This document shows positions 48,901-51,900 of a stretch of DNA of 64,000 nt, one piece after another (within the stretch, counting starts at the first letter, position 1; each line of letters opens with the position of its first letter). The position numbers and the translations under genes are program-made. Location: NCBI RefSeq assembly GCF_036971445.1, contig NC_091470.1, positions 76,198,001 through 76,262,000 of the forward strand, given 5' to 3'. The stretch is from Narcine bancroftii (Eukaryota). The notes beneath the pieces are model-generated. The model made no database searches, had not been told where the DNA came from, and was given only the letters and a program-made list of their open reading frames with translations.

Positions 48901-51900
48901 CCCTGCCCATTGCCCTTAGTGCCTGAATATAAGCTCTACAGGACTCACCGGGCTTTTGCCTCCTTGTAGCAAGTTTTTACCGAGCATAGATCCTGTTCAC
49001 CAGTCGCTCGTAGAGCCCTTTCAGCACCTTCATGGCTGCGGCATAAGTGGTTGCGTCCTGGACACTCTGGTAGACTCTCGGGGACACCAGTCATCAATAT
49101 TAGTAGTCGATGGCTGTCCTCTCTCATGGCAGGGTCAGAGAGCTGTAAGCACGTTTCGAAGCATCTCAACCAGTGCTTAAAGTCATTCGAGGCTGTAGCT
49201 GACTGTGGGTCGACGTCGTGGCGTTTCAGCCGTAGCATACGCTCCATCCCTTCAAAACTTTTTAGTTAATAAAATTGTAGTGTGCGTCGAAAGAACCAAA
49301 GACTTGTTGATCCAAACCAAGGCTTTTATTAACTAAAAGACTGGAGCATATCACAAGTAGGTTGACCAGTCCAGAATTACTTGGTCTGGCTAGGAGCAAC
49401 CCTTTAAGATCTGCCATTAGGTGTGGCTACACTCTCAGCCAATCACAGTCATCCTACACTACAATCTGTACATATACACATTGGTGATAGAATCTGTACT
49501 ATCACAATATATATCTTGGAGAGGAAATAGATAAGGTTGGAGAAGGTGGAAGAATCTCTAGCCGAAAAAAGGAAATTAATATCTTGTAAATAATGGCCTG
49601 ATAATGTCTTGGTGGATTACTGTGCAGAAGGAGGCATGGCACTCAGCCTCTGCAATGGTAGGGGCTAGTTTGCCAAGAAACTCTACCCTCGTCAACAGGT
49701 CAGATGACAGGTTTGGAGTTGGTTCCCAATGTTTTAAGTCCTGCAAGTTCAGAGATGGACAAGAACCTTGAATAAGTGAAAAAAAAATGAAATTCAATGT
49801 CATATCAACAATTCATGATGAAAAGTTGTACCAAGTTTGACAATAGTTATTCTGCCAAAAGCAATTATGCCAAGAACATTGGATACAAATTTACTCAGTC
49901 ACTGAGTTGAAAAGAAATTCTATAACCAAAGTTTCCAATAGATTAAAAAATGGAAAAGAGGGTGAAGAGGAGGGTAAAACCAGCAAAGTTGTGCTGAGTT
50001 CTTTATGTAGCAAAGATATACATATCCAATGTCTTGGGCCTGAGCCCTTCTCCATACCTTGATGAAGGGCTCACGCCCAAAATAATGGTTATGTAATCTT
50101 TAACTCTGCTACGTAAAAATGCTGCATGACTTGCCGAATTTCTCCAGCAATTTTGTGTAAACTATAATCACAGCTTCTGCAGATTTTTTTGTTTAACTCA
50201 GTATAATTATTATAGCCAAGTTTCTCTATGAAGCAGTGGTGGATATGCTTTCATGCAATGGGAGGCAAATTTAGGAATCAAAGTAGGTCATTCAGCCCCT
50301 CATGACTTTCCTTACACTTAATTAAATCCCAATCCCAATGAAAAAGCTGGTAGGAGTCTCACTTTTAGAATTTCTAGCCTCTCACTTTTCTGGAGAAGAA
50401 ACACTTTCTATTTCCCTTTGGTTCCTAATATCACACGAAAAAAATGCTCCTCTAATTCTCTTGCTCTGGATTCTTCCAAGAAAAATAGTTTCTCTTACAT
50501 ATCAAATCTTTCAACGATCTTAAATCATTCATTAGATCACCTGCAATCTTCAAATGTCAAATGAATCCATACTTAGTGCCAGCCACCTGTTTCACAGAAA
50601 CTAATATAATTTATCTCAAAAATGAAAGGTGAAATAAAGCTTTGAGAGGGAAATGAAGGACAAGAAACATAACACGAGAAAGCATTGGGGAAAATCTGCC
50701 GAAGTATATGGTGGAGGGAAAGAACTGAAGGTTTTGTGCAAAAGATAAGGGTGGCTGAAGGATAAAGGAAATAAGAGAAGTTTGGAAGCTTGCTGAGTCA
50801 GGGAAGTGGGGTCTTCCATTTTGCCACTGCTGTGTGATGAAGTTATCATTAACTACATATAGATACCAGTACAAGCTCTACAATTCCAGGAGTGGGAGTA
50901 AAAAGAGTTTGCTTCAGGCAGTCTGGATAGTTTAGACACCTAGTGCAGTTCAAGTGCTCTTGGAAAATAACACAAAGACCTTCTTCATCTGATTTTTCAA
51001 CATCAAATGGCACTTTAAATGAAAATCCATGCATGACATAAAATGATGCATGTAAACTACACACAAATGTCAAGTGTAATTTATAGCTCGACCTCTCAAA
51101 AATCAGAATGAAGCTGTTCTGTCCTTACTAAACCATAGGCTGTTTTGCATGAAGGAGCACACAGGACCATGGTCTCACCTGAAAGATATTTCCTCAAACA
51201 TGATAGCACTTCATCCGTACAGTGAACCTAGATTACAAGCAGTCACTGTAATCGAACTTGAAACTACAACGCCTTGACTTAAATTGAGAGTGCAATCTGA
51301 TGAGCCATTGGTGAGCATGCAATTTACATTTCCACGCTAACTTCCTCCACAGAATGAGGCTTACCTACTAGAAGGAATAATCAGTGATTCTGTCTTTGTG
51401 ATTTTTCCACTGGGTGGCAGCTTTTCAAAGAAACTATCTGCATTGATGCTTTCAGATCCCATTGCTGCTTCTTCCTCCTGTATTTGATCCTTTTGTGGAA
51501 CAGAGAACAAAAACATATATCAAAATAGTTTGCATCACAGCCCATGTTGTCTTTGAACACTGAAGAATCCGCCTGTTTTGTGAGACAACATTCTTTATAT
51601 TGGAGGAACAACACTTCATATTCCATCTGGGCTCCCTCCAAACAGATGGCATTAACAGTGATTACTCCTGTTTCCTTTAGCCCTTCCCCCTCCCCTCATC
51701 TATACCTACTGTCTTCTTTCCCCCAGCTCAGCATTCATAGAGGCAAACCACCCCCCCCCCCAACCAGTTCTCACCTTTTCTCTCTCCTATCTGTATCCAA
51801 TTAACACCTTTAGTCTGTTGGTCTGTGCTCCACCCCCCCCCCCCCCCACTCTTTCTTTCTCCACAGCCTTTTAATCAGACGTCTGCCCACCTTTTACGCA

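Follow-up and report, generated by a model that had tools for sequence, protein, structure and literature searches.

We propose that a Gypsy element on the minus strand of the window (the whole stretch of 64,000 nucleotides analysed here) very probably starts its reverse transcription without a tRNA, using as primer a fragment of about 54 nt from the 5' end of its own RNA, whose start and cleavage after AATAAAA are predicted from the DNA. The sequence-only reading of this locus had raised tRNA-free self-priming in a lineage lacking a chromodomain, and its proposal is now supported by covariation between families, by a tRNA screen with a positive control and by junctions found in the genome. 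The complementarity between primer-binding site (PBS) and LTR, its register, its covariation, the lack of a match among the screened tRNAs, and the classes and end points of the junctions were all read directly.

The element (window 44913-49506) is a decayed copy of 4.6 kb, whose two LTRs (44913-45143 and 49276-49506, 231 nt each) are 95% identical. It has the features of Ty3/Gypsy (Metaviridae) elements, namely TG...CA LTRs, a polypurine tract (PPT), a target-site duplication (TSD) and the order gag-PR-RT-RH-IN, with two CCHC knuckles in the gag frame followed by PR, RT, RH and IN, and its closest relative with a solved structure is the RT of Ty3. The 5-bp TSD, the two knuckles and the lack of a detected chromodomain agree with the first description of the element, and a TSD of the same length is present at the relatives L031, L035, L036, L042 and L046. 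The features are the following, in the order of the element:

49507..49511 (second copy 44908-44912), no strand: TSD ATATA, 5 bp
49276..49506, minus: 5' LTR, 231 nt, TG...CA
49401..49407, minus: TATA-like box TTAAAGG (predicted promoter), 83 nt 5' of the 3' end of the arm
49373..49379, minus: putative initiator-like site, TCATTCT in family copies and TAATTCT in the LTR of the window
49324..49377, minus: putative self-primer, ~54 nt long, running from the predicted start through AATAAAA
49343..49352, minus: partner of an outer helix, ATATGCTCCA, family-specific, able to pair with the gag start region
49324..49338, minus: LTR arm TTTTAGTTAATAAAA, containing the poly(A) signal and followed by the clade-wide RCCT motif
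between 49324 and 49323, minus: predicted cut, before RCCT
49275..49323, minus: 49-nt loop (rest of R, U5 and one spacer A), template of the putative strong-stop DNA
49260..49274, minus: PBS TTTTATTAACTAAAA, perfect complement of the arm, no match to a tRNA end
45211..49247, minus: gag (two CCHC)-PR-RT-RH-IN, reading frame interrupted by stops and frameshifts
45144..45157, minus: polypurine tract AAAGAAGGGGTGAA, adjoining the 3' LTR
44913..45143, minus: 3' LTR, with its own arm and AATAAA at 44961-44975 and no PBS 3' of the arm

As had been noticed from the sequence, the minus-strand 5' LTR is followed by a single A (49275) and then by the PBS, not by TGG, and plus 49260-49274 and plus 49324-49338 are reverse complements without a mismatch. 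The LTR ends in ...CTACA at 49276, the loop measures 49 nt, the arm holds AATAAA, and the gag ATG lies 12 nt from the PBS, its A at 49247 being 13 places on. The 15-bp stem is bounded, the adjoining pair being non-Watson-Crick on both the outer and the inner side. Since folding energy lends little support (z of -2.2 for the whole region and of -1.5 from the predicted start), the case is built on comparative data. An outer helix over the AUG was considered as a feature of the clade and rejected, as it is family-specific.

Tandem units of about 33 nt occupy window 48137-48261, in the gag-protease interval, and are greatly expanded in P0002 (ATATPGADATAAAAA-like repeats). Outside the element, the inverted arms nested at 52244-53878 (24-49 nt, 82-90% complementary) resemble the termini of an old DNA transposon or MITE, and an inverted repeat with 32-nt arms and a 13-nt loop at 50019-50095, which has a related copy 1.8 kb off at 51899-51941, presumably represents a common SINE/LINE end. 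The plus-strand open frame of 438 codons at 55195-56511 is, judging by its motifs, what we take to be an RTE-like LINE reverse transcriptase.

In G000, the same genome as the window, 3,495 candidates were found, of which 40 were scored and 30 retained as loci. By eye, the stem is perfect in 17 of the 30, window included, and the remaining 13 carry isolated, uncompensated changes, as expected from decay after insertion. A younger sister family, family B (P0002 gag, 61% identity; LTR pairs 100% identical in L230-L232), has both its arm (TTTTGCTAATAAAA) and its PBS (TTTTATTAGCAAAA) altered, including a 1-nt change in length, and the two are perfectly matched by eye in 28 of 30 loci. More matched arm/PBS pairs were observed at L168, L172, L176, L169 and L160, other matching pairs in additional G000 families (30 loci) retrieved with a stingray gag as query, and one coupled arm/PBS change within a metagenome family (L095). 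The first ~186 residues of a public BRCA1 gene model (P0003, isoform X2) are family-B gag, reflecting either a chimeric exon driven by the LTR or an artefact of annotation.

In a protein search the nearest named relatives were from rays and sharks, followed by sea anemone, whipworms and many unnamed metagenome proteins, with 1,850 proteins at E <=1e-40 among the 7,984 scored; the clade is thus widespread in animals. The viral contigs searched contained no relative of the element, and in the ESM Atlas only generic gag clusters matched. Whole animal Gypsy elements of the clade occur in GTDB bacterial MAGs (L139-L141, L143-L145), most likely as host contamination, and at L109:3094-10696 a clade element is nested within a different LTR element that has a TGG-type PBS.

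Scans of metagenomes and GTDB gave 68 loci, 46 of them with a gag start. The pooled set comprised 76 records (44 metagenome/GTDB loci, the window, L054 and the 30 loci from the stingray-gag search), L113 and L143 being left out as they have no usable upstream sequence; 13 of the 76 were dropped because they have no CA-[AT]-T[TC] site on which to place the PBS, and the other 63 formed 38 clusters. Taking the first member of each cluster and the best of one to three candidate sites as PBS start, which slightly favours the own-LTR value, the longest perfect complement from the PBS start had a median of 13 and reached at least 11 in 26 of 38 clusters. Runs of at least 11 were found in 11 of 1,406 comparisons with the LTRs of other families (0.8%), in none of 813 with starts shifted by 20-44 nt and in none of the 3,800 sequences obtained by dinucleotide shuffling of the LTR regions, so that the pairing is not due to chance. 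With the best member per cluster, at least 10 of 12 positions are Watson-Crick pairs in 34 of 38 clusters (30 distinct PBS 12-mers), the other four falling below this value; the covariation between the two arms asked for by the sequence-only reading is thus present, in register, as compensated arm/PBS pairs. In all 34 clusters the PBS begins 1 nt past the CA of the LTR, with a loop of 24-68 nt; it opens with TTT in 32-33 of them, and the arm is followed by R-C-C-T (G in 24 and A in 9, then C in 29, C in 31 and T in 28). With G-U allowed, the first members of 35 clusters show in register 399 Watson-Crick pairs, 8 G-U pairs and 13 mismatches. This rarity of G-U relative to mismatches would fit a PBS copied from the arm in each cycle, and not a helix kept for its shape alone.

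Mature tRNAs end in CCA, and therefore a PBS complementary to a tRNA 3' end opens with TGG, which is the case in none of the 34 clusters. The screen against host tRNAs covered 30 tRNA loci of G000, representing only 8 amino-acid types and no mitochondrial tRNA; five PBSs of the clade matched any of these over 7 nt at most, and the positive control, a Mag-like element of G000, matched tRNA-Ser over 14 nt. Regarding the poly(A) signal, the arm carries AATAAA in 17 clusters, ATTAAA in 8 and neither in 9, and in three of the 34 AATAAA is unpaired within the loop. Masking of the 5' signal, also put forward for this hairpin, is therefore not its core job, sole or main; in the window family, where AAUAAA is paired in the 5' copy only, and wherever else the arm carries a signal, it is likely a side benefit.

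Junctions of an unusual kind bear on how the PBS is used. Contigs from four public runs, which as assemblies cannot display transcript ends, revealed neither a start or end of the RNA nor a poly(A) site. In such contigs we observed opposite-strand joints at 49275/49324 and 49273/49326, in which U5-CA-A-PBS runs into the antisense of R upstream of the arm; such a join would be the content expected of a self-primed minus strand, or of a plus strand copied through its primer. The exact pattern U5-A-PBS-antisense R occurs 456 times in G000 (reversed control, 0), next to 1,538 junctions of the normal LTR-PBS-gag kind and 2 mirror-type ones. We read 98 loci, corresponding to the first 100 listed places of the 456, with end points blurred over several bases by microhomology. 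In 41 (class i), the whole U3-R-arm is joined to a short antisense-U5 tract (<=62 nt), mostly with internal sequence next. Partial antisense-U5 tracts, present at 57 loci, a few of them duplicates, have a median length of 49 nt, with 19 ends falling at 44-53 and 37 at 39-60; given a loop of 48 nt plus the spacer, copying tends to stop one base past the arm, which is where a cut template would end. Another 9 (class ii) have a full 5' LTR followed by an antisense tract of 45-62 nt, 25 (class iii) a full LTR and then antisense as far as the U3 end, and the other 23 are mixed.

With repeats counted once, the end points of the partial tracts that follow a full LTR are 31, 41, 45, 50, 52, 53, 55, 56, 113, 142 and 146 nt. 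Five of these 11 ends fall within 50-57 (p ~2e-4 if ends were uniform over 146 places), and none of the 98 loci ends between 57 and 112. The initiator TCATT and the TTAAAG box had been noted before the tract data were available and predicted 54 nt for the window family and 52 nt for family B; the cluster of ends coincides with the initiator, 30 nt behind the TATA-like box. Several other G000 families have similar boxes 81-86 nt from the arm end; such TATA-like boxes at the expected spacing are mostly confined to G000 families, with scarcely any in metagenome families. The transcript would hence begin near 49377, where over-copied primer tracts end; the Tf1-like start at the arm itself that had been anticipated does not hold, as these data point to a start ~39 nt upstream of it and to a primer of 52-55 nt, as read from DNA. 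In both G000 families the initiator sits at the apex of a short hairpin (window 49369-49391, minus strand), so that the wall at 50-57 nt could be a pause site and not a cap; if the start is as predicted, the RNA could fold this hairpin in its 3' LTR copy only. A targeted pattern for ends at 52-57 gave 10 matches with 7 distinct partners (5 already among the 98 loci). In each of the 10 the tract follows a 5' LTR and then switches to element sequence, and in the control window of this pattern there were 4 matches, two being deletions inside full tracts and two true ends (62, 69) into other DNA.

Among the 19 class iii loci with exact ends, 13 are palindromes of ~433 bp with a perfect 5-bp TSD, which indicates that the integrase used two U3 ends. 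These palindromes (e.g., L271, L272, L276, L311, L313, L326 and L354) consist of the LTR, one A and the antisense LTR from the arm to U3, with a U3 end on both sides. In 75 of the 98 loci the tract reaches the U3 end of the LTR, past any 5' primer, and thus classes i and iii need an extra jump or a DNA fold-back; class iii would arise from the inverted repeat with any primer. One junction was found in three insertions that are 92-100% like the reference LTR, and such products can therefore spread. L274, L305 and L357, three insertions of different ages, represent a subfamily with a deletion, in which a PBS of 52-53 nt, complementary to R, is fused to gag at position ~664. At L281, L293, L309 and L322, antisense U5 precedes a 31-nt U5 tract, a further fold-back that lies at the inner hairpin within the loop.

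From these data we infer a transcript start, an RNA cleavage, an enzyme and a route to each aberrant class. The RNA would begin near 49377, and the last 15 nt of the segment 49377->49324 would pair with the PBS; a cut at AAA/GCC, perhaps made by RNase H by analogy with Tf1, would yield the primer, which RT would extend over the 49-nt loop. Poly(A) sites usually lie 10-30 nt 3' of the signal, and a signal at the end of the arm would put that of the element 10-30 nt downstream, so that the first jump to the 3' R could proceed via the short repeat bounded by the cut and the poly(A) site. The plus strand would then regenerate the PBS from the attached primer, at times overshooting to its 5' end, and the PBS would track its own LTR in each family because it is rebuilt by copying this primer. 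Run-through of the whole primer by the plus strand, or a mis-jump of the strong-stop DNA, would give a product that is still inserted by integrase, and such mis-copied products may be the source of the G000 junctions and of the 433-bp palindromes.

The primer could instead come from the same arm in the 3' R of the genomic RNA, on the same or on a partner molecule, cut after AAA. The arm is identical in the 3' LTR, the tracts of 75 of the 98 loci hold all of U3, which is present only at the RNA 3' end, and at L318/L319 they extend into the antisense PPT. However, the cluster of ends at 50-57 nt fits a template that starts at the predicted start, the antisense-U5 stops past the arm fit a cut 5' template, and cutting the 3' R would destroy the landing site of the first jump, all of which makes this source improbable. 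We consider it very unlikely that concealment of the 5' poly(A) signal is what the hairpin was selected for, in the manner of the HIV-1 poly(A) hairpin, with another RNA or a protein as primer and the junctions as fold-back by-products of the inverted repeat. A signal is indeed present in 25 of 34 arms and the 25 palindromes are explicable by DNA fold-back, but the clusters with no signal in the arm or with AATAAA left in the loop, the stem start fixed 1 nt after CA in 34 of 34, the scarcity of G-U pairs relative to mismatches and the asymmetry of the two possible junction types (456 versus 2) speak against such a role, and no candidate for the alternative primer emerged.

That priming is by a fragment from within a tRNA, or by some other small RNA of the host, the LTR match being incidental, has a precedent in the half-tRNA priming known in Copia lineages (accessible part of PMC6317226), and the limited coverage of the tRNA screen leaves some room for it; nevertheless, the 30 distinct PBS 12-mers match their own LTR and rarely those of other families, and with tRNA matches of at most 7 nt this explanation appears highly implausible. 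Finally, two loop inversions (L294, L295) recall host recombination between the 15-bp arms, but inversion should yield both junctions equally, which they are far from doing. An assembly artefact is at odds with the 5-bp TSDs flanking the palindromes, with the junction shared by three insertions and with its presence in independent sequencing contigs too, so that either of these origins is scarcely credible. Self-priming from the 5' end of the RNA is thus the reading that we retain.

To our knowledge, self-priming has been demonstrated only for Tf1 of fission yeast, being inferred mainly for its chromovirus relatives and for one plant Copia lineage. We found no description of it for a non-chromovirus animal Gypsy clade in the literature searched, which did not extend to Repbase Reports, GyDB and most subscription journals. 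On balance, we lean towards a broader proposal, somewhat better than evenly supported, in which self-priming arose separately from Tf1/sushi in a Gypsy clade that spans the animals and lacks a chromodomain. Its capped primer would be long and would finish at the poly(A) signal, and a single hairpin would both make the primer and set the overlap for the first transfer. As this primer would stay attached and be over-copied, some one-fifth to one-quarter of the PBS-bearing junctions in the genome would be fossil replication intermediates, among them the integrase-inserted 433-bp palindromes with U3 at either end, and the length of the primer as well as its cut site could be read from these intermediates without experiment. 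Mis-copied insertions would in this way allow the primer and the cut site to be mapped by genome sequence alone, and would also supply a vertebrate genome with long perfect palindromes. Self-priming would presumably place the elements of the clade beyond silencing by tRNA fragments, and pipelines that require a TGG PBS will overlook or mis-score them. Whether tRNA or hairpin priming came first in LTR elements is a question raised in the accessible part of PMC3601003, on which a separate and abundant self-priming animal clade would bear.

In Tf1/Tf2 of S. pombe, Tj1, Tosmo and the Tf1/sushi chromoviruses, the PBS is likewise complementary to the element's own LTR, and not to a tRNA (PMC7175516, PMC4600332, bioRxiv 10.1101/2022.12.06.519325, as far as accessible), a feature that the element of the window shares. 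[quoted passage not shown] Here, in contrast, the putative primer measures ~54 nt and would pair through its 3' end, the arm usually ends in a poly(A) signal plus RCCT, and the gag has two knuckles, as in Mag. The Tf1 primer is reportedly not removed, going by the title of one reference. Searches of 9 clade polyproteins with the Chromo family gave no match at E 0.01, a threshold that a very divergent chromodomain could escape, and none of the 16 Chromo matches in G000 (L209-L224) lies beside pol, so that chromoviruses seem to be rare or absent in this genome. As regards the duplexes of the Tf1 'pretzel', pairing of the leader with the loop (34 clusters) or with upstream R (33 clusters) did not exceed that in shuffles or between families (p 0.6-0.8), the window family alone being able to form either helix. 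Against Ty3, the RT-RH of a clade element scores 185 bits and that of a Mag-like element 223 bits. In a quick tree of 53 RT-RH pieces (44 clade rows, labelled by identity to P0002, and 9 others, with neither named references nor a chromovirus), the clade forms one long branch apart from the Mag-like, the IN-first and one other Gypsy, a result that speaks to its distance from these 9 rows and not to a separate origin. Since there is no detected chromodomain and no clade-wide pretzel, the primer is longer, and RT-RH is no closer to Ty3 than that of the Mag-like element, we do not file the clade under Tf1/sushi.

Self-priming has also been predicted for plant Tcn1 chromoviruses and for TAR (Houba, Osr-1) Copia elements, by the rule that at least 10 bp be complementary to the LTR, beginning 0-5 bp past its end, with which the element of the window agrees; these are, however, other lineages in other hosts, and primer-junction insertions are undescribed in the accessible part of that work (PMC6317226). 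Within G000, the Mag-like comparator (gag 29.5% identity) shares with the clade a single ORF, short LTRs and a 5-bp TSD, and differs in its tRNA-Ser PBS, which does not match its own LTR, and in its RT-RH (28-29% identity), which lies on a separate long branch. We take this comparator (L225/L226) to be a Mag-lineage Gypsy (C-clade/SURL-like). The Mag lineage was rejected as a placement, given the lack of a tRNA PBS in our clade and an RT apart from this one unnamed comparator family, and so was Gmr1, as IN does not precede RT and the IN-first elements of G000 branch apart. By description only, the clade may correspond to Cigr-1 (Ciona; RepeatMasker Gypsy-Cigr), which we assume to have a single ORF of ~1,200 aa, an LTR of ~245 bp and an echinoderm-like gag, in keeping with the relatives found here. 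Motif searches gave no match in the text and 4 of the 5 supplements of PMC6238403 or in part of the supplements of PMC8556966; the Cigr-1 clade is reported from molluscs and annelids (see PMC6238403, PMC8556966 and PMC3670739).
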